Positions 1 through 59,559 of a DNA stretch of 64,000 nt are shown one piece after another (position 1 is the stretch's first letter; each line of letters opens with the position of its first letter). The stretch spans positions 1 through 64,000 of the forward strand of contig JAAILG010001405.1 in the NCBI GenBank assembly GCA_012026655.1, read 5' to 3'. The notes under the pieces are model-generated. The model searched no databases. It was not told where the DNA came from and worked only from the letters and a program-made list of their open reading frames with translations. Both the position numbers and the translations under genes were made by a program. Source of the stretch: Hydrolagus affinis. Lineage: Eukaryota.

Positions 1-629
1 TAAATATTTCAATTTTTCATAGCTACTTGCCATGGAATCAATAAGTGGAAGTAAATAAACAACAAATGGCAAAATTTTAGCAGAACTGATATGATTCTTG
101 ACCACTTTACCAACATTTTTATGCAATTTCAAGTGCACGGTGGCCCACCTAAACCAGCTTCAAATTACCTAGGATTTTACTGGTGGTGTTTTCTACACAA
201 ATGGAAACTTTTTAGACTAGGGACAGAAAAAAATCTGACGGAAGGGGCGTTTGATGCACCCTATCCAATGAGCACTTTTCAAACCTAAGAATCACTGGCA
301 CTTTTTATTGAATCTCATATTACTCATAGGAAGTGCATTGAGGCCATTTTTTAAAAAAAATGCTATTTTCTGAATAATGGATACCAATAAAGATAGTTAT
401 CTTTGTCTTGTATGTACAGTTGGCAATCAGAACATTGGTTCTGAAGTTTTGTACATGCCAGTCTCTTAAATGTTCATTTAAACACCTAATTTGTCATTAC
501 TGTCTGCTGTAGACTTGCCGGCATAAATATTGAACAGTTTAACTCCCTTTCCTATGACTTTAGCTTTAATGAATTCTTCATGGCTGGTTACTTTAATGAT
601 TGTGTTGTTTCTTTTTTTTCTTGTTTCCG

Positions 630-1020
630 CTTGCAATTTCCACTCTTCTCCTGAAGGGGCTAACTCATGCTGCGGTACTGTTCCACCTTTCTGTATTTTG
701 TCCAAATAGCCATTTTTCATATCTAGATCTGCTAGCCTTGAGTATCGCAACCTAGCCAGCAATAAACGTGAGAAACAAGCCCAATCAAGTCCTCACCATA
801 TCAGCAGAGGGTATTGGATAGTGAAATGGAGCAGGAAACCTAGCTGATATTGTTCATTTTCTTCTTCCCTCACCCAAGAGCACTAAAAATAATTGTAATG
901 CCTTTTGCTGCTCTGCCTAAAGTCAGCTAGCTAGTACAAATCCAGGAGCGATCATGAAATCTTCTGGATTAATATGGTTGATTCACATTGGGAATGTATC
1001 CACCAAGTAAGCTGCTTGGG
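630..1020 (-). mobile_element. Old SINE-like repeat, with related degenerate copies at ~39090-39450 (+) and ~51440-51770 (+)
   Basis: Shared blocks gtggaacagtacc...cttcaggaga and ggacaggatc-ggcttggct-tgatg between copies. Family not identified. Confidence 0.5.
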
Positions 1021-1326
1021 AGCCCATTGCGCACCTCTTCACCCTCCTAATTTGCAATAAAGACAATCTGATCTGTAATTTGAGTTATGCATATCAATTA
1101 ATTTCCTCCACACGCTCAGCAGTTATTCTAAACCAGGTTGGTTAATGGTGTCATTCATGCTTGCTGCATCCTGTCTGTCTCTCTGTCTTTATCTGTCTGT
1201 TTGAAGTTATGTTATTGCAAGGAAATTATTTGAATCTACATTACCATTTTTCAATTTAAAGAGGTGTTTATAACTTTATTGTACCAGTGTTTATAAAACT
1301 GAATTTAATTGCTATCTTGCTTACAG

Positions 1327-1382
1327 CCAGGAGAACTACGCCCCTTCTGGAGTATATTAAAAACAAGAAACTGGAAAAACAG
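1327..1382 (+). CDS. UPF3A: UPF3A internal coding exon (ARRTTPLLEYIKNKKLEKQ)
   Basis: ttacag acceptor and ag|gtggga donor. Peptide matches human UPF3A ARRTTPLLEYIKNRKLEKQ rather than UPF3B AKKTTPLLSFLKNKQ. Upstream exons lie outside the window. Confidence 0.93.
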
Positions 1383-1475
1383 GTGGGATTTTTCTTTTTG
1401 AGTTTCACTTATAATTATATTAATTGTTTGAAGATGATTCAAATTGACATCTTCAATTATATTGTAATGTTTCAG

Positions 1476-1646
1476 CGACTCAGAGAAGAGAAAAGAGAAG
1501 AAAGAAGGCGAAGAGAGTTGGAGAAAAAGCGCTTAAGAGAGGAGGAAAAAAGAAAGCGTAGAGAAGAAGAAAGACGTAAAAGAAAAGAAGCAGAGAAGCA
1601 GAAAAAGATAGCTGAAAAGGAAAGAAAAGAAGAAATAAAAATCAAG
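1476..1646 (+). CDS. UPF3A: UPF3A coding exon, charged coiled-coil (RLREEKREERRRRELEKKRLREEEKRK...EEIKIK)
   Basis: tttcag acceptor, aag|gtatgt donor, 171 nt, phase 0/0. The N-terminal part is near-identical to human UPF3A. Confidence 0.95.
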
Positions 1647-2323
1647 GTATGTCTCTCCAAAATGCATTTTGTTTATTAGCTTTTAATATGAAATGTTTTT
1701 TGATATGTAAAGCAATCCAACCTGTGAAGAGCAGTAAATTTAGGATCAGGTTGAAAATGGTGTTTCTCGATCAGGTGAGTTTCACCCGTTGGTGTGAGAC
1801 AGTTGTCCAACCAACGGGGACTTACCCCATTGAGAACAAGCAAACATTGTAGATAAATGGATATTAGACAAAATACAAATTGCCTTCAGTGCTAACTAAA
1901 AAAGTTCCATCATGATCTTTAGTTCTTGTGGTATCACATTGTGCTCCTTCTCAAGTCTCTCATTTTTTTCTTTGACTCTTTCATCCTAACATTTTTGATC
2001 TCTCTCTATCTCTTTCTTGAGTTTTCTTAACTCTCTATCTCTACCTACCAATCTTATTTTGAAAAATTACCTTGGAGCTCCAGGTACAAAGTGAATCTTT
2101 TCCTGTGCGTACAAGATTTTAAGCCCCTGTGCGCTGGCATTGTGCAACCTCATGCAACAAATTCTTATGCATTATAACAAGGTTACCTGTATTTTACTTT
2201 CTTAAAATTATTGAGTTGTTCATTAGAATGTACTTTTCTTTATGTGTATTTCAAATGGGAGATGTTACAGTTAATACCATCTTAACAATTTGATGCTGAA
2301 TGCTTATACTGATGGCATGACTA

Positions 2324-3018
2324 TGGAAACTCCCTCCTCTTTGCCTTCCCAGCTTTTCCGTTCACAAACTGCAGATCATCTAGAACTGTGCAGCTTGTGG
2401 CCTCTCCCGCACTAAGCTCCACAACCATATCACTCCCACTCTCACCTGGCTCCATCGGCTCCCCATCCCCCAGAGGATCGAATTCAAGATCCTCGTCCTC
2501 ACTTTCAAGGCAATTCACGGCCTTGCCCCTTCCTATCTCTCCAACCTGCTGACTCCCTATCAACCTACCTGCCTCCTCCGTTCAGCGGCTCCTGTCTGCT
2601 CCATGTCTCCCACCCGTTGGTGGCTGGTGGATTGGATTGAAATGAGGGAGGGCAGAGAGGTAGGAGGTTGGCTGAAGGCACGGTTGAAAACGAGGGTCTT
2701 GAGATCGGGGGTAGAGAGGCTGAAAGCCCGGCCATTGATGGTAGGGTGGATGAGCGGGAGACATGGAGCAGGCCAGACATCCTGAGCTTCTGCTTTGATT
2801 TGTGTACCTTCGGTCATCGTGGAACTCCAGCCTTTCTTTCTCCCTTGCCTCATTCAAGGCAGGTGTCAAGACCCTCATTTTGGCCGTGCCTTCGGCCACC
2901 CTCCTACCTCTTTGCCCTCCGTCATCTCAGCCCTGCCCCCTCACCACTCCTACCATACTTGTTCAGTTACTTGGTATGTTCTCCCGACATGAAAGGCGCA
3001 AATGTAATTTTGTTGTTG
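2324..3018 (+). mobile_element. L2-clade LINE 3' fragment with an internal opposite-orientation L2 piece (~2616-2790)
   Basis: KLQII.N.AAR / LHWLPI.QRI.FKIL-like remnants and a 3' tail atgaaaggcgc..aatgtaattttgttgttg. Confidence 0.85.
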
Positions 3019-3106
3019 AAGCAGCAATGGTCTTACAGAGAGAGCTTGATAGGATATGGATCTAGGCTAATAACAAGGAAAAAAAATTAAATCAACTATT
3101 TGTATA

Positions 3107-3345
3107 CAACAAAAAATTACATTTATATAGCATCTTTCATGTCAGGATATCCAAAAGTGCTGGACAGTCAAAGGTTTGCATCCAAACTAGGGGTTGGAAT
3201 CGGGAGGGACGGAGGTCAAGGAAGGGGTGGGAAGATGACAGAAGGCATGGTCAAAGAGGAATGCCTTGAGATGGGCCTTGAAGAAGGTAGGGGAGGTGTG
3301 AGGCAGAGAGGATCCGGGGTGGAATTCCAGAGGATGGGGGCAAAA
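3107..3345 (-). mobile_element. L2 LINE 3' end
   Basis: Reverse complement of the same L2 tail (caacaaaa..ttacatttatatagc..ctttcatgtc). Confidence 0.8.
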
Positions 3346-3347
3346 TA

Positions 3348-3733
3348 CAGATAGACCCTGCTTAACGTCATAGTTTGGTTCTTGCAAAGTGCGACTTTAA
3401 GCGAAACGATGTTAAGCGAATACATTTTTCCCATAAGAATGAATGTAAAATCTGGGGTTAGGTTCTTTTGGACATTTTTAGTAATGCCGACTCGCTCACT
3501 CACTCGCTGCCGGTTTCACTCACTCGTTGCTGGTCTCACTCGCTGCAGGCTGGCTCTCTCTCTCGCTGCCGGCCTGGCTCACTCCCAGGACCTAGCGCCA
3601 TTGTACCCCCTTTTCCACCCGCTGGTGAATAACGTAATAGTGAACGTCGCAACGTTAAACGAATATACGTTCCCAATGTATCAGCAATGTAATAGCGAAA
3701 AAATGTCAACCAATGTTAAGCAGGGTCTACCTA
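3348..3733. mobile_element. Tc1/mariner (Tigger/pogo-like) MITE
   Basis: TIRs cagatagaccctgcttaac / gttaagcagggtctaccta, each flanked by TA. Confidence 0.8.
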
Positions 3734-3928
3734 TACACAAGACAAACAGGATCCCAGGCTGTATTGCTAAATTAGTTGAGTTCAGATCCCGAGAAGTCAA
3801 ACTCAATTTTAGGACAGGCACCAGGAAGTATTTCTTTATGACTGAAACTTTACCAGAAAGAGTGCATGGGGCCAGGACACTTTTTTATTAAAAAAAAGCA
3901 TGATACTGTGGTGGGATAAAATCAAATG

Positions 3929-4320
3929 TCAAACCTCTCTTGTAATTTTGTTACAGTGATAAATTTAGCTGCAAATTTAGTTGAGGTAAGACAGATTTAC
4001 TGTTTATCTGCTTCTTGTGTAATCAAGCTACATTGTGATATTCAGTTGTTGAAGAAGGTTGATAAGGAGGAGGAAAATGACTCAGACAAACGAAAGGAGA
4101 AAGGACAGGATGGGGATGATGAAAAAGGAAAGTGGGAAAAGCCATGCGGCTCTGGAAACCTGCAAGGAAAACGATCTGAGAATGCACTGAAAGATGTCAA
4201 AGATAAGTGAGTAAGCACAGTATAGGTATTATGTGATTGGGTGTTCTTCCTTCAAACCTGGTTTGTAATTTTGTTACATTGATAAATTTAGCTGCAAATT
4301 TAGTTGAGGTAAGACGGATT
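3929..4320 (+). repeat. 69-bp direct repeat (3929-3997 and 4252-4320) flanking a UPF3A exon
   Basis: tcaaacct...ttgtaattttgttaca[g/t]tgataaatttagctgcaaatttagttgaggtaagac[a/g]gatt, with 5 mismatches in 69 nt. Confidence 0.95.
4046..4206 (+). CDS. UPF3A: UPF3A coding exon (LLKKVDKEEEND...KDVKD)
   Basis: ttcag acceptor, aa|gtgagt donor, 161 nt, phase 0/2. LLKK start as in UPF3 proteins, and the phase fits the next exon. Confidence 0.9.
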
Positions 4321-4699
4321 AAGTATTATTTTTGCCTGTTCAACTGAAATTTATTTCAATTTGTTTTTTATGAAATTGAACTACTGTATTTATAAATTAG
4401 GACAATTCCATGATAATTCCATTTAATGTCTAAATTAAGAATTGCTCACTTATGTTATGTCACCGTGGTGACAGTATTGAAGTTCATAGGCAGCAACCAT
4501 AATTCTCTTGGTTTGAGAACTGATGAAAACAGTCTGTTTCTTCTTCTGATGTTACTGGAATCTCGGAAGCTAGGGTGACTTGAAACTCCTCGATGAATGG
4601 ACAATGTGTTCTCTTTCTCACTGAACTACTGAAGTGTAAATTGTTTTTCTTTATACAGTACCATGATTTTCTACTTCAGGCATGTTGCCCACCTAATAA

Positions 4700-5570
4700 T
4701 AATAAATCATCTTTGCATTTGATATAGCACCTTAAGACATCATTAAGACATGTCAAAGAGCTTCACAGGATATACTGTAAAGTGGATTGACTGAGTGGGC
4801 AGAATGCGGCAGGCAATTTGCGAACAGCAATGTCTCACAAACGGCATTGGAATGAGTGACCAATTTTATTGGGGGGATTGTTAGTTAATACCCCGGACAA
4901 AGCTGCCTTCTCTTTCTGAACAGTGCCAATGCGATCTTTAACATCCACCTGAATGGGTAGATGAGACTTTGGTTTTACCTCTCATCCGAAGGACAGTACC
5001 TCCAATATTGCAACATACCCCCTGCACTGCAGTGTCATCTTAGACCATGTGTTTCCAAGTCGCAATTTGGGGTTTGGACTCATTGAGAAGAGTGCTACCA
5101 CTGAGCCAGGCTGACATACAACAAATTCACCTCTTCTTTCTCAGCCAATTTAATTTTTCATAATACAGTTCAGAGTATGTTGACATCTTATACCATGTTG
5201 TCCAGTGTTATTACCAGTCAAAGCACTTAGTTACTATAAGTGTAGGTGAATAGAGCAGCCAATTTGTCCCACAAACAGCCATGAAGTGAATTACCAATTT
5301 TATTTGACAGATTATTAGCCAAGAATCTGGGAGAAATTCCATTCTCTTTTTGAATGGCGTCATGGAATCTTTCACATCCACTTGAACAGGCAACAACTCA
5401 TTCATTTAACATTTCATCTAAAAGGTGACACCACTAGCAATGCAGCCCGCACCCTCCCTACACTGCATTGGAGTGTCAGTCTGCGAGTTCAAAGTCCCCA
5501 AATGGGTCTTAAACACACAACTTTCTAACTCCAAAGCCAGAGTTCTACCAACTGAGCGCAGCTGGCACAT
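4700..5570 (-). mobile_element. Two tandem Deu-domain SINE copies (~4700-5115 and ~5225-5570)
   Basis: Reverse complement of the DeuSINE/AmnSINE-type core (gctgacactcc.atgcagtg..gggag..tgc...gatga..tgttaa...caggtggatgt.aaagat) plus a tRNA-like head. Confidence 0.7.
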
Positions 5571-5943
5571 ATATTTTATCTCATATGAAAAAAAGTCAAT
5601 CATAAACTACCAGTTAGATATTCTCTTGTTACCTGTATAAAGATCTCGTCAGTGAGGTCCAAGTGTAATGACTGTGCTGTCAATGGATAACTCTGGGAAA
5701 ACTACAATACCAAAAGGTGCAATTGCATAAAATCAGCCTTAAATAATTTACAGTATCTAAATTCTTGAAACAAAATTTGACAACTTTCAATAGGTTATAT
5801 TGTAACTATGCATTTTTGAAGGAATCCTGCCTGCTAATACTTTATCACAATCTTTTTTGAAATAAGATATATACGTACTATATTCGCTATTGATAATTAC
5901 CATAGACTAATTTAATTGTTTTTATAGACACAAAAGAAATAAA

Positions 5944-6756
5944 TATTTCTAATCAAAATAGTTTTTATTGGGCTTTAACGGTAGTACAATACGTGTATTT
6001 TGATAACCTTTAAAAATAAACAACTTAGTAAAATGCAACATTTCAGTTTTTTTTCAGTTTTTTTACACAAATTTGGTGGGGTTTTTTTTACTCAGACCCC
6101 TAAATGATGGTGCTAGAGAGCGAAGAGAGAGGGAACGGGAAAGAAGACTGAGGGAGAAGGAACGTGAGCGAGAGCGACAGAAGCGATGTGAGGATGAACG
6201 CAGAAGGCAAAGAGAACGATATGAAATGGAAAGGGCTATGAGAACAAAAGAGGAAGAAACAAAAAGAGGGAAGGAGCACGGTCAAGATAGAGAGAAGAAG
6301 GGAGACAGCCTTAACTACATGTTTAGCACTGAGAAAATGGACAGACTGGGTAAAGAAGACAAAAATGATGACATGGCATCTAAAAGGGAGCGGATAAGAA
6401 ATAAGGTACCTGTCACCATTTTTTCAAACTACTATGATATTGGTAGTATTAATTGGAGTAGTTTTTCAAGTCCCATGTTCTAAAATACCAGAATATAAAC
6501 TGCATACTCCATACATGCCACAATACATGAAGTCAAATGTTCTACATAGCATGGGTAAACTCTACCCAAACAGGTATCGTCTTGTACTGTAATTTACTGT
6601 ATTTGTTTCAAGTACTTTATTAAAACATTCCCATCTAAGAGATTTTTTTTCTATTCCTGAAATGTTGCATGTATATTTTACTATGTTAAGTTTATTTTTA
6701 AAGGTTATCAAAATACTACCGATAAAACCCAATAAAAACTATTTTGATTGGAAATA
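5944..6756. repeat. ~100-bp inverted repeat (arms 5944-6046 and 6657-6756) bracketing a UPF3A exon
   Basis: Arms align as reverse complements with about 4 substitutions and 3 short indels. They include a perfect 27-bp block gtattttgataacctttaaaaataaac / gtttatttttaaaggttatcaaaatac. Confidence 0.95.
6096..6405 (+). CDS. UPF3A: UPF3A penultimate coding exon (PLNDGARE...KRERIRNK)
   Basis: Polypyrimidine tract plus ctcag acceptor, aag|gtacct donor, 310 nt, phase 2/0. RE-rich, contains GQDREKKG (UPF3A-like) and ends RIRNK. Confidence 0.93.
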
Positions 6757-7169
6757 ATTTGACAGAGTAAACGTTTGTGAAAGCCACTTCTACCAATTGA
6801 AACTTCTACCAATTCTTATTGCTATCTTGAAACTCTCCTAATGTTTATTCCATAATTACTTACTTTACGAATAATGTATCGTAACCTCAATCTTGAGTGG
6901 TAAAAAACCTTATGCAACTAAGCTAACTACAAAACACAAAGTCTACGGTGCTAGAAGCTAATTTGGGGAAAGCAATCATAGGAAAAAGTTCTTGTCTTTG
7001 TAAGCATGTAAACACATACAGGTGTCTCTATAGAACCCAAATAGATTGGATCTTTAAAGTATGGTAGTACATTTTAAATGAATATTAATACTTAATAATT
7101 AATGCTACATTTAATATTGTAGCAGCTGAGGCTTTAGATGTAAATGTCTTGGTGACACCATCCAGGGAT

Positions 7170-8690
7170 GAACTTCCACTAGTATGCGGATGACACCCAA
7201 CTCTATCTGTGCCTCCATCCTCAACTCCAGAACCACTGCTATCCTGGCAAAATGTCTTGTCAGATCTCATGTCCTGGATGAGCTCACTTTCTACAGATGA
7301 AGCTCAACAAGACCGAGGCTCTCTTGATTGGCTCCCATCAGCGCCTCCACACCTCAGGCACCTCCACACCTGGAAGCATCACCCTCAATGGATGCACACT
7401 TCACCTTACTAAGCCAGTCTGGAACCTTGGCATCTTGTCCTTTCTACCCCACATCCATGCCATGACATCAGTGGAGTCCTATAGCTCAGTGGTTAGAGCA
7501 CTCACCTTACAAGCGAGAGATTTGGGTTCAATTCCAGGCAGGTCAAAATCTTAGGCAAATTTTCTTACTCCACGGGCCTAATAATAATCCTTAAAAGAAA
7601 AAATATTGAATTGATCATTTCCATCCACAACCGGCTGTGGGACACTGCTGTGCCAATTGACTGCCACGTTTCAGGCACATATATAGTGAATTCACTTTAC
7701 AGTATATTCTGTGAAGCGCTTTGAGACGTCTAGAAGACATGCAAAGCGCTATATCAAATGGAAGGATTTCTCTTCTTCTTCCCTTACTCCCTTTCCCCTC
7801 TTCCCTCTTGCCCCCCTCTCTCCCTTGCACCCTCCCTTTTCCAATCTATTGTTCCCCACCTTCGTCTTCCTCTCCCCCTTTCCTCTCTTCCCCCTTTCTC
7901 CCCTGGCCCTATTTTCACGATTGTTTGTGGGACACTGCTGTGCGCAATTTGGCTGCCACGTTTCGCCCACAAATATACAGTTAATTTTCCTACCTTCCTT
8001 CCCCAAACTCTGAAGTGCTTTGGGAGGTCGATAAGACATGGAAAGCGCTATATAAACTTAAGGATTACTTACTTATTACTTACTATTATTATTATTATCC
8101 AATATACCTTTCCCCACCTCTGCAACATTGTGCGGATCCACCACAGACTCACCCCTCAGACCCCGAAACCCTCACCCACACGTTCATCACATCTAGGCTT
8201 GAGTATGCCAACTCCCTGGTTGTCGGCCTTCCCCACTCTTCCCTCCATAAGCTGCACCTGATTCTGAACTCTGCAGCTCGTGTCCATCACACACACCAGG
8301 TTCCCTAACCCACCCCCTTTGCCTGGTTCCACTGACTCCCCAACCACCGGAGGTTAGAGGTCAAAATCCTTATCCAATCCTTCAAAGCTCTTCATGGTCT
8401 TGCTTTTTCCTACATCTGTGACTTGTTAATCCCATATCAACACGTCCGCTCCCCCAGCTCAGCAGGTTCTGGCCTGCTCAACGTCCACCACCCTGCCCGC
8501 CTGGCAGTCAGGCCTTCAGCCTTTCTGCCACCACTCTTCGGAACTGCATCCCACATTCCTTTTGCCTCATTGCCTTTATCATCCTTGAATATCCCCACTC
8601 AGCACAGGTCCAAATCCCTGATTGTCCAGTTATCCCAAGGGATGTCCTCCTGACATGAAAGGCACTACACAAATGTAATTTTGTATTGCA
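7170..8690 (+). mobile_element. L2 ORF2 remnant interrupted by a tRNA-SINE (~7471-7765), a pyrimidine tract and a second SINE tail
   Basis: YADDTQLYL at ~7183, KLNKTEALLIG, HTFITSRLEYANSL. The SINE head has A/B boxes (tagctcagtggttag, ggttcaattcc). Confidence 0.85.
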
Positions 8691-9584
8691 AAGTTAATAG
8701 AAATTATGACACAAAGGTTCAGTGTATCGGGTTCTTTGAAACCTTTAGATCAGATGGAGAAGGAAATTGATTAGTGTTGGATTATTTATAGGCACTGACA
8801 TCACTATAAAATAGCGAATATTCTTGGTGAAATAAGAATATATTGGCGCAGTTTATTCATTCATAATTTGTGTTACATTTTATTTGCTTCTCTCTTTTGC
8901 CTATCAAGTTTGAGTAGGTTCTTGCAAGGTTCAAGCTGTAGACATATAATTATACATTTTAAGTCTGGATCATATTACTTCAAGATCTTGTTTTCATATA
9001 ATACCTTTTGGTAAACTTGCCTGAAGATCTGTCTGAGCTTTGTGGGAATGTACGCATCCTGCTACAGGCACTTCAGCTAATAATGGTGAATCTTGCTTCT
9101 ATGGGGAAATCTAGTAGGAATGTATTTTTCCAATTACGAAATCATCCTTTATTACAATAATCAAACAAACTACAGGATATCAAATATCTTTTATTGGCAC
9201 TATTCAACTGTTGTATTCCATAGATTAATTCTCTGTGGTTTCATAAATACAGGAGTTTTTTTGTATACACCTTGATCTTCACTGGCTACAAATATTCTAC
9301 AATCTTCCCATTCTTAACTTGATATTTTATCCATTTAAAGTTCATTGAGAGAGTATTAAAGGTTTTTGAAGGGATATGTGCCAGAAACATTTATTCTAAT
9401 TTCTAATCTCTATATTCTGTATCCATTATTGTATTTCTATCTAGTTCTTCAACCAAAATGAATGAAATAACTGGTTTACAGTTACATTATCCAAACATTT
9501 TGCATTTTAAGTCTGATCATATCACTTCAAGATCTTGTTTTCTCTTAACAAAAACATGGTCAGTTACAAGTAATCAATCCTTTC

Positions 9585-10265
9585 TAGGTGTGTTGTTCGA
9601 TCCTCAACTGTCTTTCCACTCCCACATCCAAGCCATGACCCACTCTGCCTTTCCTCATCTCTGCAAGATTGCTAGACTCCACCACTACCTCACCCCTCAG
9701 ACTGCCAAAACTCTCATTCATGCCTTCATCACATCCAGGCTCATTACGCCAACGCTCTGCTTATCGGCCTTCCCAACTCCTCCCTCCGTAGGTCCCAGAT
9801 CATCCAGAACTCTGCAGCTCATGTCCGCTCCATGACCCCATCTCCCCCGACTGACTCCCACTGACTCCCCATCACCCAGAGGATTCAATTCCAGATTCTG
9901 GTCCTCACTGTCAAAACCCTCAAAGGCCTCTCCCCACTCTACCTCTGTGGTCTCCCCCTACCAACCTGCCTTCCCCCTTCGTTCAGCGGGCTCCTGTCTG
10001 CTCCATGTCTCCCGACCCACCCACCCCACCATCAGCGGATGAGCCTTCAACCACTCTGCCCCTAATCTCTGGAATTCCATCCCGCAGTCCCTCGTCCTCG
10101 CCCCCTCCCTAGCCTTCATCAAGTCCCTCCTCTTCAACAGTCCCATCGTCCACCCCGATCCCATCCCCAGCTCAGGTCTGAAACATTGATTGTCCAGTGC
10201 CTTGGGAAGTCCTGCCAACATGAAAGGCATTATACAAATGTAATTTTGTTACTGTTGTTGTTTCT
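9585..10265 (+). mobile_element. L2 LINE 3' fragment
   Basis: LGVLFDPQLSFHSHI, AKTLIHAFITSRL and a (ttg)n tail. Confidence 0.85.
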
Positions 10266-11029
10266 TGATTTTGTGCCTCATCACTTCAAAACAGCTGAAA
10301 GTGCTTCAGAGTTTTCCTGAAAGTGTAGATTATCTATGAAACATTTTCTCATAAAGAGCTTTGAATCCTCTAGTCTGTTCTCGAGTGCTCAAAACATAGG
10401 CAGAGCAAATCTCTGATATATAAACATCTTTTATAGAAATCCTGGTACCTATAACATTGTAATAAACCATACATTAATACTGTGTTTAAGTATTTTGTTC
10501 AATAAAATATGATAAATTTGGCATGCTGACTTCTGAAGTTTTCTTATCTATACGGTTCAAATATTACCATTCAAAGCCCACGAAAACCTGATAATCCGAG
10601 TTAATCAAATTTATATTTAAATTAAATTCTCTTCATGTTAAATGGTATGGTGTTGAGACTTACTCTGTACAATTAAGCTTAGCTAAATTGATGCTGTGTT
10701 CCTAAAGGCATGTGAGTGAATAGAGATAAGAATTGTTTAGCCAAGCACATCTAATAGTTTAGCTTCCTATGAATAGAATTCCTTAGTATTTCTTGTCGAG
10801 GCTGTTACTCAAAATCAAATTTTCATTTTGTAAAATCACAGCTAACTATTTTAATGAAAAAAATTAAGTGTTTACATAACAGCAAGAGTTGTAGGAATAG
10901 TAAACAGTGGAGCTTCAAAATTAGTCACATAATGACTAAAATTTTAATTGGAATAATTGTTTGTTGTTAGCTGATTGTTTTTCAAAACATACTGAGCTAC
11001 ATCAATAGATATCTGTAATAGCACAAATA

Positions 11030-11280
11030 GAATGCCAGTCTGAAAATGTTGGAATTCTGCATTAGAATTGGAGAATTTGGAAATATAAAGATGATAAATC
11101 AGCATCTGGCAGAGAAATAGACCGTAGATCAACAGTTCAGGTATGACCCATCATCTTCACCAAAACAGTTATTGCAGACCAATTATTTTAGCTTTATGAA
11201 GGCTCTTTCTGAAATAATGGATTGTTCCCTTTCAGGTGTTGACTAGCCTGCAGTGCATTTGGTCTGCTTTTGTTTTAGTT
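11030..11280. mobile_element. Degenerate Penelope-like terminal fragments in inverted arrangement, with related copies at ~32540-32680, ~36610-36680 and ~48510-48635
   Basis: Motif gacc.gaaa.gtt....tttcctctctcca.ggatgctg..tgacctgctg..ttcccag, recalled as a common shark Penelope-derived end. Family call is from memory. Confidence 0.45.
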
Positions 11281-11473
11281 CTACTGGTGACTCAATTTCT
11301 TCATAATATCATAGCTTGAATGAAAAACAGTCTGGCACTTCTTGTGTACCCATCGTGTTACATTGTGGTGACACAAAAATGTAACTCTCACACAATATTT
11401 ATAAGTATGCATTTCAATACAACTACACGGGTGATGCACAGTAGTACGATTTTTTCTGGTTTTGGTTGTGCAG

Positions 11474-11641
11474 GACCGTCCAGCAATGCAGTTGTACCAA
11501 CCTGGAGCACGCTGTCGCACACGCCTAGGATCTGGTGGAAAGATGTATGACTGCTGTAGCAAATCTTCCGAAGACAGCACAGAAAAAAAATATGAAGATG
11601 ACAGTTCTGTTGGAGCAGGTTCTGAGAAGAGTGAAGAATGA
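11474..11641 (+). CDS. UPF3A: UPF3A terminal coding exon (DRPAMQLYQPGAR...GSEKSEE*)
   Basis: tgtgcag acceptor. Encodes the EJC-binding motif DRPAMQLYQPGAR. TGA at 11639-11641. Not in the ORF track because it has no start codon. Confidence 0.95.
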   Translation, partial: DRPAMQLYQPGARCRTRLGSGGKMYDCCSKSSEDSTEKKYEDDSSVGAGSEKSEE

Positions 11642-16080: not shown

Positions 16081-16780
16081 CACAGGAGACACGCACACTC
16101 ACACACCGGGGGGATGGACAATCCAACAAACGGACGGAACATGACAGAGTAAGAGACTCTTCCCCCACCTTAAAAAAAAGAAATCACCCCTCACCCTGGG
16201 GAGAAACTCCTCAATAACCCATCCCAGCCTACGATGAGCAACTTCTCACCAATAACTTCTGTTTGCAGCCTGAGGGTGACAAACTCCCCTGCACACCCCC
16301 CCCCCCCCCCACCATCACCGCCCCTCGGGGAGCAGGGGAGCAAAGGAGAAATCTGGGGGGAGGGAGAAGATGTTGGAAATATTCGTGGTCTAACAATTTG
16401 AATTTTTAAGAGCTTGTCAACAGCTGGCAAATATTGCTTACTATTCCCAATTTGCCTTCTCTATAGGTGAAGGCGGTGTGGGAATTGCAATCGACCTTTC
16501 TGTAAAATAGATACTGTGGACCTCACAGTCCTGTTTGTTAAATGGTAACATCTTTTAGCTTTTAACAATGGAAGATGCCACATTTGACTTTTCTGCATAG
16601 CTCCTGGTCTGAGATTTGAATACATTGCAGGCTCAAAACCATTCCAGAAAATAGTACCTTTAGAGGATCCTGTGCACCTGTGAATAGGGAAGGTTCGGGA
16701 GAACTGAAAGCCCACACACAGAAGACATTTATTGTAAAACATTTGACCATTGGAAAGTTATGAATTGACCTGTAGCAGAG

Positions 16781-18670
16781 ATGCAAGCAAAGGAATTTAC
16801 CAGTCAGCAAGAAAATTCTGCTCAGTTTCACACAGCAGAGAAATTGGAAAACAATCCCAAGATTTGTAATGCCTCTGAAGATTTAGTTTGTGTAAATTGT
16901 GATTTTAAGAGTCCTGATCATGAACTCTTTCAAAAGCACCTTGCTTCCAGTACCTCAGAACATGCTGATTTAAGAGATATCATGATTTACCAGAAAAGTG
17001 CAAAGTTGTTTCATTGTCAACAGTGTTTCTTCACAAGCAGATTGTACAGGAATGTTTATCATCATGTAGTAGAACAACATATAAAATTGATCAAGAAGGG
17101 AAATAAAGAGGCTTTTCAAACAACTGAATCCCATGCCAGAATAGCCCGTAGGAGAAAAAAAAGAACTTCAAAGAAAGATTTGAAAGAACCCAAAATGATT
17201 CAAGGGAAAAAATCCATTAAAGGTGGAAAAAGGAGTCTTAAACAATCAAAGGAAGCAAGCACAAGTGTCCTACAGCCCAGTAAGAAGAAACCTAGAAAAC
17301 AGAAGCATTTGATCACGAGAAATTACAGTTCAGAAGATGCCAGAAGCAGAGTTACTGATTTTATCTGTGAAACATGTGGTTTTCAATTCTCTACTCTTAT
17401 TGAACTAAATGGGCATTCCTGCAACAAGAAAATCAAGAAGAAAGCTGAGCATTTCGAGTTTGAGTATTGTGATTATAGTGGCCGATACCCAATTGAATCT
17501 GGATCGGGTGGTAAATCTACAGTTTCAGGTAAACCTGAGGAGCCTCCTGAAGAAAACAAAAAGGAAGACGAGCCTTCTGAAGAAAAGAAAAAAGAGAAAA
17601 GTTTAGCAGAAAATGTGAAGTATGTTCGAGGAACCTTTTTCTGTAATTCCTGCAATTTTCGCTGTAAAAGTAAAGGTAGTGCTCTGTATCACGTTGTTGT
17701 AAAACATAACAAACCTTATCCTTACCAGTGTAGTGTATGTGGGAAATATTTTGTTATTGACCAGGTACTTAAGAGACACATGTCTGTGCACACTGGAGAA
17801 CCGTATTACAAATGTTCCTATTGTGATTTTGAATCTGATTATGCAAGAGCTTATAAGAATCATGAGAAGCAGTGTAATCCACAGCTGAGAAAAAATGCTT
17901 TCTCTGAAAATACAGGTGCTAACAGGCAACAGAATGCAGAGGTAAAATTGACCAATTCAGTACCTTCCTTTGTGCCATCTCACAGTTCACATAAGCAAGT
18001 AGAACAAGTGGACGGAAATTCTGTTGCAAAAATTGAATCATCAGAAGCTATTATGTTGAGAGAATCATCAAAAAATGATTCAAAACTGAAAACTGGTAAG
18101 ATGGAGACGTCAAAGCTGCGACTTATGGTAACTGCAAAGTGTGGGTCAGGCCATCAAGAAGACTCTTCATCCTCAAAAGATAACATTTTAACTTGTGATA
18201 AAAGTGGAAAAAAGTTTGATCAGCAAGGAGCATACAATAAGCACAAACCCATTCTTGCCCGACAGAAACATCTGTCCTGTGGGTACTGTGAGCTGAGTTT
18301 TGGAGATGTAACTGCATTGAGTGATCATGTCAGTGATGCTCATGCAGAGAGGAAAACATTTGGCTGTGATCGCTGTAGTGCCAAGTTTGACAGACAAGGT
18401 GATCTGCAGCATCACATAAAAGTTCATAAACAAAATAATTCGAAGACTAACCAATCCGGTGAGATTGATGACCGAAAACTTTACAAATGCCAATACTGTC
18501 CTTACAGCTCCTACCTATTTGCAAACTACAAAAGACATGTCAGGACAATTCATACAGAAGATTTTCTCATCTTCTGCCCATATTGTAAGGGTGGATTTAA
18601 TCTTCCAAGTGAGTTGAAGAAACACAAATGTCAACAGATTCAGGATGCGAATATAAAATCAAATCAGTAA
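16781..18670 (+). CDS. CHAMP1: CHAMP1 (ZNF828)-like C2H2 zinc-finger protein, 629 aa, single coding exon
   Basis: YQKSAKLFHCQQCFFTSRLYRNVYHH matches the CHAMP1 N-terminal signature YQKSAKLFHCHKCFFTSKMYSNVYYH. KGSALYHVVVKHN..PYQCSVCGK...KCSYCDFES matches the CHAMP1 C-terminal finger triplet. Lies directly downstream of UPF3A, as in human. Confidence 0.88.
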   Translation: MQAKEFTSQQENSAQFHTAEKLENNPKICNASEDLVCVNCDFKSPDHELFQKHLASSTSEHADLRDIMIYQKSAKLFHCQQCFFTSRLYRNVYHHVVEQHIKLIKKGNKEAFQTTESHARIARRRKKRTSKKDLKEPKMIQGKKSIKGGKRSLKQSKEASTSVLQPSKKKPRKQKHLITRNYSSEDARSRVTDFICETCGFQFSTLIELNGHSCNKKIKKKAEHFEFEYCDYSGRYPIESGSGGKSTVSGKPEEPPEENKKEDEPSEEKKKEKSLAENVKYVRGTFFCNSCNFRCKSKGSALYHVVVKHNKPYPYQCSVCGKYFVIDQVLKRHMSVHTGEPYYKCSYCDFESDYARAYKNHEKQCNPQLRKNAFSENTGANRQQNAEVKLTNSVPSFVPSHSSHKQVEQVDGNSVAKIESSEAIMLRESSKNDSKLKTGKMETSKLRLMVTAKCGSGHQEDSSSSKDNILTCDKSGKKFDQQGAYNKHKPILARQKHLSCGYCELSFGDVTALSDHVSDAHAERKTFGCDRCSAKFDRQGDLQHHIKVHKQNNSKTNQSGEIDDRKLYKCQYCPYSSYLFANYKRHVRTIHTEDFLIFCPYCKGGFNLPSELKKHKCQQIQDANIKSNQ

Positions 18671-56930: not shown

Positions 56931-58952
56931 TTATCCAAATATTGTCGATTTTGGCCTAAGTTTCAATGGGCTTTTTGGGCCACGATCATTATCCGTTCCT
57001 CGAAGAGAGGGCGTACTGTGAATAATCTGGGTTTTAAACCTGATTCTATTGAGTTTCATTTTGGTAGATGTTTTCCGGCTGACTGCTTTTGAAGGCATAG
57101 CATCAATCGTTTCTTCCTCAGGAACATTGACCAGTTTGTGCGTCAGGTTAGCAGGGAGAACTTTGGACAGCCTCCAACGACCACCTCCATTCTGCGAAGC
57201 GCTTTCAGGGTCAGAAATTCTAGATACACCTATGAGACTCCTTACTTCTTCTAAAACATCACGGGTTAGGTATTGCCAAGCTTTCTTCCCGCTGTAGTCC
57301 CGAATATCAGCATTTGCATCATATGCACCAGACAACAGTTTTACTACTTCCGTATGTCCATGCATAGCAGCCAAATGTAGCGGAGTGTAACCACCACTGG
57401 AGCGCAAATTTATATTAATTTGTATGTCATGTTTTCCTGCATAATTAACAAGCGTTGCAAGTAGTTCTGGTCTGCCATGTTTTGCTGCCCAATGAATACA
57501 TGTGAACCCTGTAACAAAATCTTTCCTGGTAATCAAACTAGGATCAGCTGCCAACAAGGTCTCAAGACTATCCCATCGACCTTCTGAAGCATGTATCATC
57601 CATTCATGTTCCAAGGGATCGAGTGCAACTGATGCAGTATCATCATCGTCTAGTTTTGAAGACACCAAAGAGATTGTGTCACTATCGCTTTTTCTAGATC
57701 CTGCATCTCCAAGTTTAATATTTGGCAATGCCACAACAGGATTATTGTAAATAACACTGCGTCTTAGCTGAGGGGAGCTGTTGATCATCAGCTCTCTGAA
57801 GTTTTTTCTGCTAGACCGGGGCGTATTTGGCAAGCTTTCACTGTGGGGGCATGCTGGATCACTCGTGCCTTCAAATCCATCAATGTCGAGACTGCTGGAG
57901 CGATCATCTCGATTTACTGTCAAGCTGCGTTGTAGAAGCTTCCTGGAAGGTCTCCTAGTATTTAAGTCGGGATTAGTTTTGACTTGTGTTGGCGAAACGT
58001 TGCTCTGTAACATGCTGTTGCTGACATTTTTCGATCGTACATCCTGTCCTGCAGAGCTCACGTCTTCCTGGAGATTGGCTCGGGCCGTGTGGGCTGAGTT
58101 GTTTTCAGACAAATCCCAAATGACTGGATTTCTCGCCTGGTTATCACGAGTGGACAGATCAAATGAGTCGGCGGGGATACTTGATTCTTTAACCCACTCA
58201 ATACCCTTGAAGTCTGGATTGGGGAAGCTCTCTCCCACGTCAGCGTGTGTTTGGGGACATTGGGGGACCCCCTGATCCTTCGCCCCATCTCCCCCCCGCC
58301 CCAGCGAAAAGGTGGTCGACGCGTTGTGACAGTCATTGGAACAAGTAGGCGGCGATCTCTCTGCGTCCGACGTACTCTCCACCGCGGGGAGGAAGGCGCC
58401 ATTCGCACAGACACGCTGCTGCGGAATTGGCCCACCTCGCTGATCGATAGATCCAGTTGGATTGCACCCAGCCGCAGCGGGCGGCAGCGATCGTGGCGGG
58501 GTGAGGGCACATCGCGCGTCGTCCCCCGACTCGTCCAAACCTCCGCGATGAACAGCTGGCACCGGAGGCAACGACCAGACCGGGTCCGTCACAGCCCCGC
58601 CGGCCACCTGGTCCCCACGTCCCACGGGTGACCCTGAGGCAGCCGCTGCAGGTTGGGGCTGACCGACCTCCGCCTCCCCAGCCGCCGCCGCCGCCGCCGG
58701 GCTGTGACTGTCGGCTCCCGGCTTCATCCTGTCACGGTATTTCTTCTTTAAGATGACGTACTTCACGCCGCCTTCGTGCACCACGACCCCTACTCTGTTC
58801 ACGAACTCCTTGAACACCCCGCGGTGTTTGGCCCGGCTGTCGGGGTTACTGAGGAACATGTTGAAATGCTCCAGCAGCTCGTCGCTCCTGACTCTGCCGC
58901 CCCTCTCCCCCAGGAACTGCAACACGGAGTCCAGGCTAAACTCCGTTGCCAT
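56931..58952 (-). CDS. SOWAHC: Ankyrin-repeat protein SOWAHC (sosondowah C), 673 aa, intronless
   Basis: SOWAH N-terminal domain (VLQFLGERGGRV...FKEFVNRV...KYVILKKK), LDPLEHEW, two ankyrin repeats (TGFTCIHWAAKHG, GGYTPLHLAAMHG), and SOWAHC-type SSPQLRRS and C-terminus RIRFKTQIIHSTPS..LRPKSTIFG. ATG at 58952 is in a strong Kozak context; the ORF track starts at an upstream GTG. Confidence 0.93.
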   Translation of the reverse strand: MATEFSLDSVLQFLGERGGRVRSDELLEHFNMFLSNPDSRAKHRGVFKEFVNRVGVVVHEGGVKYVILKKKYRDRMKPGADSHSPAAAAAAGEAEVGQPQPAAAASGSPVGRGDQVAGGAVTDPVWSLPPVPAVHRGGLDESGDDARCALTPPRSLPPAAAGCNPTGSIDQRGGPIPQQRVCANGAFLPAVESTSDAERSPPTCSNDCHNASTTFSLGRGGDGAKDQGVPQCPQTHADVGESFPNPDFKGIEWVKESSIPADSFDLSTRDNQARNPVIWDLSENNSAHTARANLQEDVSSAGQDVRSKNVSNSMLQSNVSPTQVKTNPDLNTRRPSRKLLQRSLTVNRDDRSSSLDIDGFEGTSDPACPHSESLPNTPRSSRKNFRELMINSSPQLRRSVIYNNPVVALPNIKLGDAGSRKSDSDTISLVSSKLDDDDTASVALDPLEHEWMIHASEGRWDSLETLLAADPSLITRKDFVTGFTCIHWAAKHGRPELLATLVNYAGKHDIQININLRSSGGYTPLHLAAMHGHTEVVKLLSGAYDANADIRDYSGKKAWQYLTRDVLEEVRSLIGVSRISDPESASQNGGGRWRLSKVLPANLTHKLVNVPEEETIDAMPSKAVSRKTSTKMKLNRIRFKTQIIHSTPSLRGTDNDRGPKSPLKLRPKSTIFG

Positions 58953-59559
58953 TGTGGTCGGTGGCCCCTTTCCTTTTTCACACCCAGCGCTAACTGTAAT
59001 AACCTCCAAAAGCGGGAGACCTGCCCATAGCTTCACCTCTCACTGAGTAGGTCTGTCTGTACGTCTTGTATGTCTGTCTATCTGCTCCTCTGCCGATGGG
59101 TTACATTGTGTTACCTTGTGCCAGCCTGTCGGGATCCACCTCCTCTCTTGTCCCTCCCTCCCCACACCCATAGCAACCAATTACTTCCGGTCTGATGCTG
59201 CCCACCTGCGAGACATGCGCTGACCCGACCCCTCCCGGCACTACCAAACCGAACATGTGGAGGGGGTTGGGGGAGAGAGAAGCTAAAGGAAAAATGTGTA
59301 TCGTCGACCCGATGAACATGTACCCGATTTCTGCGATTAATATTATTTCACAAGATCAATGATCTTTATCCAATGTCTTCTACCGCGGCAGTATTTTGCT
59401 TTCCAGGTCACGTCATTGTTTCTCTCTCCCCCTTTCTCCCTCACTACTTGGTAGCTGCCCGCATTGTGAGTGGATTGCAGCGCTGTCTCGGGCGCAGCCG
59501 TTTGTAGCGCGAGCGCCTCCCGTCTCTGCTCTCGCACTGTAACCGCCACCGCCTCAGCA
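58953..59559. promoter_or_regulatory. Bidirectional CpG-island promoter SOWAHC/SEPTIN10
   Basis: 607 bp between divergent ATGs. CCAAT at 59177, ETS acttccgg at 59183, E-box cacctg at 59203, CRE-like gtcacgtca at 59407. Confidence 0.8.

Follow-up and report, generated by a model that had tools for sequence, protein, structure and literature searches.

An inverted repeat of about 100 bp surrounds the penultimate coding exon of a gene in the 64,000-nucleotide stretch of DNA analyzed here (the window), which raises the question of whether its two arms form an RNA-structure switch that decides which protein is made or are the trace of a local copying event. Judged from its predicted exons, the gene is UPF3A: the window exons are 86 to 95% identical per exon to UPF3A of C. 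milii, the best of their protein matches are named UPF3A, and RRM exons are present; the source is by these matches presumably a chimaera-type cartilaginous fish. The N-terminal UPF3A exons are spread over contigs C20839, C39188, and C44385. Contig C15464 carries a paralog, in which no inverted repeat was found around the equivalent exon. That paralogous exon has a short, unrelated read-through. The UPF3A exons considered in the window are the following.

1327 to 1382, forward strand: UPF3A coding exon, start of the coiled-coil middle region (from translation)
1476 to 1646, forward strand: UPF3A coding exon, coiled-coil middle region (from comparison with C. milii)
4046 to 4206, forward strand: UPF3A exon of 161 nt, donor of the predicted skip junction (from comparison with C. 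milii)
6096 to 6405, forward strand: penultimate UPF3A coding exon, 310 nt, 95% identical to C. milii residues 308 to 412
11474 to 11641, forward strand: last UPF3A coding exon, with the normal stop at 11639-11641 and a shifted-frame TAG at 11526-11528

The last intron falls within the EJC-binding motif of UPF3A, exon 6096-6405 ending in the first half of the EJC-binding region, and the motif is identical to that of skate and shark. Residues 403 to 454 of C. milii UPF3A match PDB 2xb2_G (a UPF3B peptide), and we take 2xb2 to be the EJC complex. Two further open reading frames in the window, a C2H2 zinc-finger frame of 633 residues at 16769-18670 (forward strand) and a single-exon ankyrin-repeat frame of 702 residues at 56931-59039 (reverse strand), are presumably CHAMP1-like and SOWAH-like, which fits UPF3A synteny.

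The two arms lie in the introns on either side of the 310-nt exon.

5941 to 6046, forward strand: left arm, a copy of 6657-6759 in inverted orientation, judged from relatives to be derived and lineage-specific, ending on a cryptic AG
6657 to 6759, forward strand: right arm, older intron sequence and likely template of the copy, at the 3' end of a conserved intron block

They are reverse complements (E = 3e-24 for the alignment within the window), with 90 matched columns and 5 mismatches over 5941-6046 and 6657-6759. Within 5944-6756 there are four mismatches, at 5950 (a G-U wobble), 5973, 5978, and 6025; three indels of 11, 2, and 6 nt separate the arms, and a perfect core of 27 bp joins 5995-6021 to 6690-6716. 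The initial annotation of this locus had thus counted the roughly four substitutions, the single G-U pair, the core, and the three indels correctly, but it had called the indels small, which does not suit one of 11 nt. It had also assigned the arms to no repeat family seen in the window and proposed a genome-wide search, and this point was borne out: against the 1.11-Gb genome, in a search that skips very common words, the left arm had two matches, itself and the right arm (E = 4.5e-20), whereas two control arms gave 1810 candidates (40 scored) and 77 candidates (40 scored). An origin of the arms from a MITE or other interspersed repeat was rejected on the same grounds, no dispersed copies being found genome-wide. 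A local inversion with staggered breaks was rejected as well, the exon between the arms being in sense orientation.

The predicted stem is strong. The minimum free energy fold of 5900-6800, another check proposed in the annotation, is dominated by the arm duplex, with 91 arm pairs, and the energy predicted for the duplex, which is long and A/U-rich with few mismatches, is -104.8 kcal/mol. A search of 3800-7200 against Rfam returned no match to a known RNA family. The left arm ends 49 nt before the acceptor at 6096, and in the fold the branch-point candidate, the pyrimidine tract with the acceptor, and the donor have the same unpaired probabilities with and without the left arm. After the cryptic AG at 6045-6046 that ends the left arm comes a short tandem duplication, in which a further AG lies at 6056-6057 (region 6041-6057); use of one or the other would add a frameshifting 49 or 38 nt, respectively.

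The history of the arms was examined over 5640-7100 in contigs from 4 of the 22 listed sequencing runs, which come from four studies and are called organisms A to D here. The sequencing-run search listed no RNA run carrying the stretch, and five presumed RNA runs of organism D carried small shares of it. Organism A (run X4) carries the whole stretch in one contig, with both arms present and 16 substitutions; an assembly artefact as the source of the arm pair was discarded because of this contig. In organism B, whose coverage has a break at 5995-6039, 5796-5994 is unchanged, and hence at least half of the left arm is present; the coverage of organism C (run X11) does not extend to the left-arm site. 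Organism D is approximately 85 to 90% identical in the flanking intron, and its single 1237-nt contig (run X14, depth 11) covers 5640-5872, 5911-5930, and 6083-6749; instead of 152 letters of the window, among them the whole left arm, it has 33 different ones. Thus, the left arm is absent at its site in organism D, where one contig of one run bridges the site. Within 6083-6749, organism D has gaps only at 6529 and 6643, 1 nt each and none in the arm; since the right arm is colinear with organism D to 6749, the indels of 11, 2, and 6 nt arose on the left arm. As polarized by this one contig, from one run of one outgroup, the event would be a gain here and not a loss in organism D.

Two substitutions in organism A fall at paired sites, 5980 G>A (partner 6720 C) and 6704 G>C (partner 6007 C), and the partners are unchanged. 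Both changes are derived in organism A, because the letter of the window is found in B at 5980 and in B, C, and D at 6704. Neither was compensated (0 of 2, with two events only), and the change at 6704 breaks the perfect core, while another change, at 5992, lies in a bulge. The arms had 3 substitutions in 209 positions against 12 in 942 for the other intron sequence (Fisher p = 0.74), a comparison in which three arm events leave weak selection undetectable. The 4 to 5 arm mismatches and the three indels, in approximately 95 columns, are all shared with organism A, which diverges from the window by 1.3%, so the copy must be several times older than the split from organism A. On the evidence of these contigs, the inverted copy is lineage-specific, yet not brand new, and is fixed in at least three taxa. 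A few letters at 6789-6795 are specific to the window, with organisms A and B sharing another state and organism C sharing the gap at 6789, which indicates that the species of the window differs from all of the compared runs.

These comparisons did not favor the expectations of the initial annotation, which had looked to related genomes for the arms and for compensatory changes and had supposed that pairing was maintained: the left arm is absent in organism D, and both paired-site changes in organism A break pairs, at an arm rate like that of the nearby intron, although with low power. The outcome that it had weighed against its own proposal, a recent and unconserved template-switch duplication, describes the locus largely, given the absence in organism D, but not entirely, since the copy is common to A and B and is not brand new.

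The explanation that we favor, with a probability of about 60%, is that the left arm is a lineage-specific templated inverted insertion that is decaying near-neutrally and is not a selected splicing switch. Under this explanation, intron sequence lying about 600 bases further downstream would have been copied in inverted orientation to give the left arm, likely by a template-switch type repair event in a common ancestor of the species and its near relatives, and the arm would likely have decayed near-neutrally thereafter. The duplex very probably can form in the pre-mRNA and may shift isoform ratios a little, and the branch-point candidate, pyrimidine tract, acceptor, and donor are all predicted to lie in the loop, outside the stem. 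The uncompensated changes and the arm rate are what a neutral copy predicts, and it is from such comparisons that we infer the direction of the event, the repair mechanism, and the near-neutrality.

Such copies appear to be ordinary in this genome. In 60 other 10-kb stretches (600 kb), 32 local inverted repeats were found (score of 80 bits or more, copies no further than 1.5 kb from each other), 28 of them with further copies in the sample. Of the four that were sample-unique, one (L033) was self-overlapping and was left out of the genome-wide test, and one of the three tested was unique. Scaled to the whole genome, this gives approximately 1,900 local inverted copies that are unique (95% range, about 50 to 10,000), a number at which some are bound to lie around exons by chance; as a near-neutral copy of this type, the left arm is therefore unremarkable, hundreds to thousands being expected in the genome. 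The genome-unique example consists of L046:6109-6163 and 7299-7354 (56 bp, 93%, 1.1 kb apart). Another sampled stretch, L035:2790-10000, holds an inverted repeat of 3470 bp that is 100% identical, with copies 272 bp apart, and may be an assembly artefact or a very young fold-back. Germline inverted templated insertions have been documented in humans, where templates were sought within 100 bp (PMC8421209). The UPF3A copy resembles these MMBIR-type insertions in that nearby unique sequence was copied inverted, some original letters were replaced, and the product was fixed in the germline; the insert is also absent in outgroup D while a nearby template is present (one contig, one run). It differs in that its template lies about 600 bp away and in that its A/T-rich junctions have decayed, so that microhomology is no longer readable.

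The alternatives all concern UPF3A forms without the EJC-binding motif, or the duplex itself, and for the former the annotated proteins of other species are informative. Skipping exon 6096-6405 would join 4206 to 11474 in a shifted frame and reach the TAG at 11526-11528 after 17 residues; this junction, the exon length, and the distance of the arm from the acceptor were recomputed and agree with the initial annotation. The skip protein that it had predicted does exist as an annotated isoform elsewhere but is not special to this lineage. Skip-type proteins made up 14 of 170 UPF3A proteins (1 of 69 chondrichthyan and 13 of 101 others), namely, P0125, which is one sequence for Amblyraja radiata and Leucoraja erinacea, 12 bird proteins, and 1 turtle protein; these isoforms are computed gene models, among which cluster representatives over-represent odd forms, and the counts here and below are not frequencies. 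Their shifted tails are 28 to 114 residues long compared with 17 here, and, as the lengths differ, the skip product would be a truncation with no conserved new tail. Seven further proteins among the 170 skip the second part of the region only, and five models, from caecilian, frog, and birds (P0047, P0073, P0084, P0113, and P0116), lack the motif because an internal donor is spliced to the last exon in a different frame. Six of the 69 chondrichthyan proteins are motif-less, comprising one skip, one read-through, and four short alternative last exons from shark and rays (P0130, P0135, P0137, and P0159), whereas all three C. milii UPF3A proteins keep the motif. Taken across gene models, the motif has been dropped repeatedly, in skates, sharks, rays, birds, turtle, crocodile, marsupial, and amphibians. 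The skip isoform thus likely predates the arm repeat, and UPF3A forms without the motif, by skipping or by read-through to an intronic 3' end, are likely to be older in vertebrates and independent of it.

In other models the motif is interrupted, at the position of the last intron, by an in-frame insert. In sharks it is 31 to 53 residues long and occurs in 23 of the 69 chondrichthyan proteins (P0013, P0017, P0018, P0139-P0160 in part, and P0171); in bony fish it is mostly 26 residues (teleost P0024, P0032, and others). A search for the shark cassette exon in the last intron of the window gave no convincing match (best E, 0.13), and the idea that the right arm is this exon was dropped accordingly.

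The second route to a motif-less protein runs into the intron itself, where two features were recognized.

6406 to 6483, forward strand: donor read-through of 25 codons plus a TAA stop (6481-6483), homologous to the C terminus of skate isoform P0131
6731 to 6736, forward strand: AATAAA in the right arm, the first canonical hexamer of the last intron and a candidate intronic poly(A) signal, its function being putative

The read-through tail is identical at 18 of 25 positions to Leucoraja isoform X3 (P0131), with equal length and no gaps, and the exon itself at 87 of 103. The hexamer is unchanged in organisms A and B, lies approximately 20 nt before a drop in conservation, and pairs with 5964-5969; its mean unpaired probability in the fold is 0.00 with the left arm and 0.56 without it. 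Organism D differs from the window by 39 substitutions (5.8%) and 2 gap letters in the 667 nt of 6083-6749, compared with 22 substitutions (9.4%) and 13 gap letters in 233 nt of the upstream flank and 55 substitutions (15.2%) and 20 gap letters in 362 nt of the downstream flank. The block includes 310 coding nt, and its intron part has at most 33 substitutions in 344 nt, so that the case for block conservation comes mainly from the scarcity of gaps. These observations suggest a likely ancient alternative intronic 3' end, whose terminal part would have served as the template of the copy.

How far, then, might the duplex have been kept for a function? The initial annotation had proposed that it loops out the exon and that this lineage thereby makes, through regulated skipping or as a 310-nt circular RNA, an EJC-blind, inhibitory UPF3A. 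Complementary sequence in both flanking introns, a strong predicted stem, a left arm close to the acceptor, and a shifted stop within the last coding exon all suit this proposal; the exon is evidently skippable, the same junction being annotated in skates, birds, and turtle, and complementary flanking sequences promote skipping and back-splicing elsewhere, as described in two reports (PMC8330042; PMC13019027). The zip-2 RCM of C. elegans and the inverted Alu loop-out in those reports share with UPF3A the complementary introns around one exon and the strong predicted stem, as well as an annotated skip form, which for UPF3A is found in other species. Unlike the Alu elements (PMC13019027), the UPF3A arms are not transposon derived; unlike the zip-2 match (PMC8330042), which is conserved in an outgroup, the arm pair is not; and skipping or circles, known in those systems, would be a prediction for UPF3A. 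Against the proposal stand the absence of the left arm in organism D, the uncompensated changes in A, the position of the splice signals outside the stem, and the annotation of the isoform in distant lineages, which also tells against the claim that this lineage makes it by means of the repeat. Together with what EJC-binding-deficient UPF3 proteins do in cells, discussed below, this makes the proposal quite unlikely. If the duplex has an effect, hiding a poly(A) site would be as plausible, in the fold model, as looping out the exon, and it would lower the amount of EJC-blind UPF3A. A version in which the left arm owes its retention to pairing with, and so hiding, the ancient intronic poly(A) site, thereby suppressing a short UPF3A that stops after the penultimate exon and has no motif, gains from the likeness of the tail to P0131 in sequence, length, and stop, from the fall of conservation in organism D at the arm end, and from the change in accessibility of the hexamer. 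Suppression of intronic polyadenylation by long-range pairing is also a published hypothesis (PMC8052449). The conserved complementary region pairs described there likewise combine long-range intronic pairing with a candidate intronic poly(A) signal beside it, but in UPF3A one side only is conserved, no compensatory change was seen, and the hexamer is inside the stem.

Several points weaken this masking idea, which we consider unlikely: of the 69 chondrichthyan proteins, a single one has the read-through tail, and that model, P0131, may reflect a retained intron; there is an ATTAAA at 6619, beyond the stem; the changes in organism A are uncompensated; and a targeted search for further read-through isoforms, a weak search confined to cluster representatives, gave two candidates, none of them scored. 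A broader view that joins the strands, in which jawed vertebrates have ancient and apparently undescribed routes to motif-less UPF3A and the antisense copy of the chimaera lineage folds over the poly(A) region and retunes the choice among them, is also improbable in our judgment; under it, the locus would hold an RNA-structure switch of recent origin acting on a core factor of NMD. The routes in this view are the exon skip to a shifted last exon, the donor read-through to an intronic poly(A) site, and alternative donors or last exons. Should the duplex alter isoform choice, relatives with and without the left arm would provide a natural experiment on the birth of a long-range RNA structure. 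An arm pair that is ancestral or old, kept as a double-stranded RNA element (for example, an ADAR substrate) and deprived of its left arm in organism D, would account for a long A/U-rich duplex with few mismatches, and the event is polarized by a single outgroup. This seems very unlikely, as the right arm runs colinear with organism D and the three indels all belong to the left arm, the changes in A are uncompensated, the paralog does not share the repeat, and the stem holds no coding site.

The inhibitory role that the initial annotation had given to an EJC-blind UPF3A fares poorly against published rescue experiments. Mouse UPF3A, which does not bind the EJC, rescued every target except one in double-knockout human cells (PMC9108626), and UPF3B lacking 421-434 gave full or near-full rescue, a strong loss being seen only upon removal of two functions together (PMC9108619). 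Both studies used expression constructs, and a 3.5-fold excess is given in the former (PMC9108626). Rodent UPF3A and UPF3B delta 421-434 are like the predicted form in having lost the C-terminal EJC-binding motif and kept the UPF2-binding region, and those proteins activate NMD; the loss there came about by motif decay or engineering, whereas here it would come from splicing or 3'-end choice. The human UPF3A isoform of these studies lacks exon 4, not the penultimate exon. Because the skip form would keep the UPF2-binding region and most of the middle region, it should be at least as likely an activator as an antagonist. In a literature search of titles and abstract openings, mostly of openly available papers, no description of motif-less UPF3A isoforms was found. 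Such natural isoforms are material for the debate over whether UPF3A activates or dampens NMD and may matter more than the arm pair.

A second unique duplication, this one direct, surrounds the preceding exon, 4046-4206.

3929 to 3997, forward strand: upstream copy, 69 bp, 93%, genome-unique, ending 48 nt before the acceptor at 4046
4252 to 4320, forward strand: downstream copy, with a donor-like GT at 4309

The 600-kb sample contained no comparable direct duplication that was unique within it. The unique duplications therefore end at 3997 and 6046, 48 to 49 nt upstream of the acceptors of consecutive exons, an agreement that may be a coincidence filtered by the sparing of branch points or may reflect a splicing-linked origin. 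This second duplication and its rarity in a random sample are a point against near-neutrality of the left arm, as are the fact that so old a copy still pairs over 90 columns and the fact that it covers exactly the AATAAA region and ends 49 nt from the acceptor. Both copies of the direct duplication carry a strong donor-like site, with GT at 3986 and 4309. The upstream copy has an acceptor-like AG too and would form a 29-nt micro-exon that opens with stop codons, 60 nt from the next acceptor, and use of the GT at 4309 would extend exon 4046-4206 past an in-frame stop.
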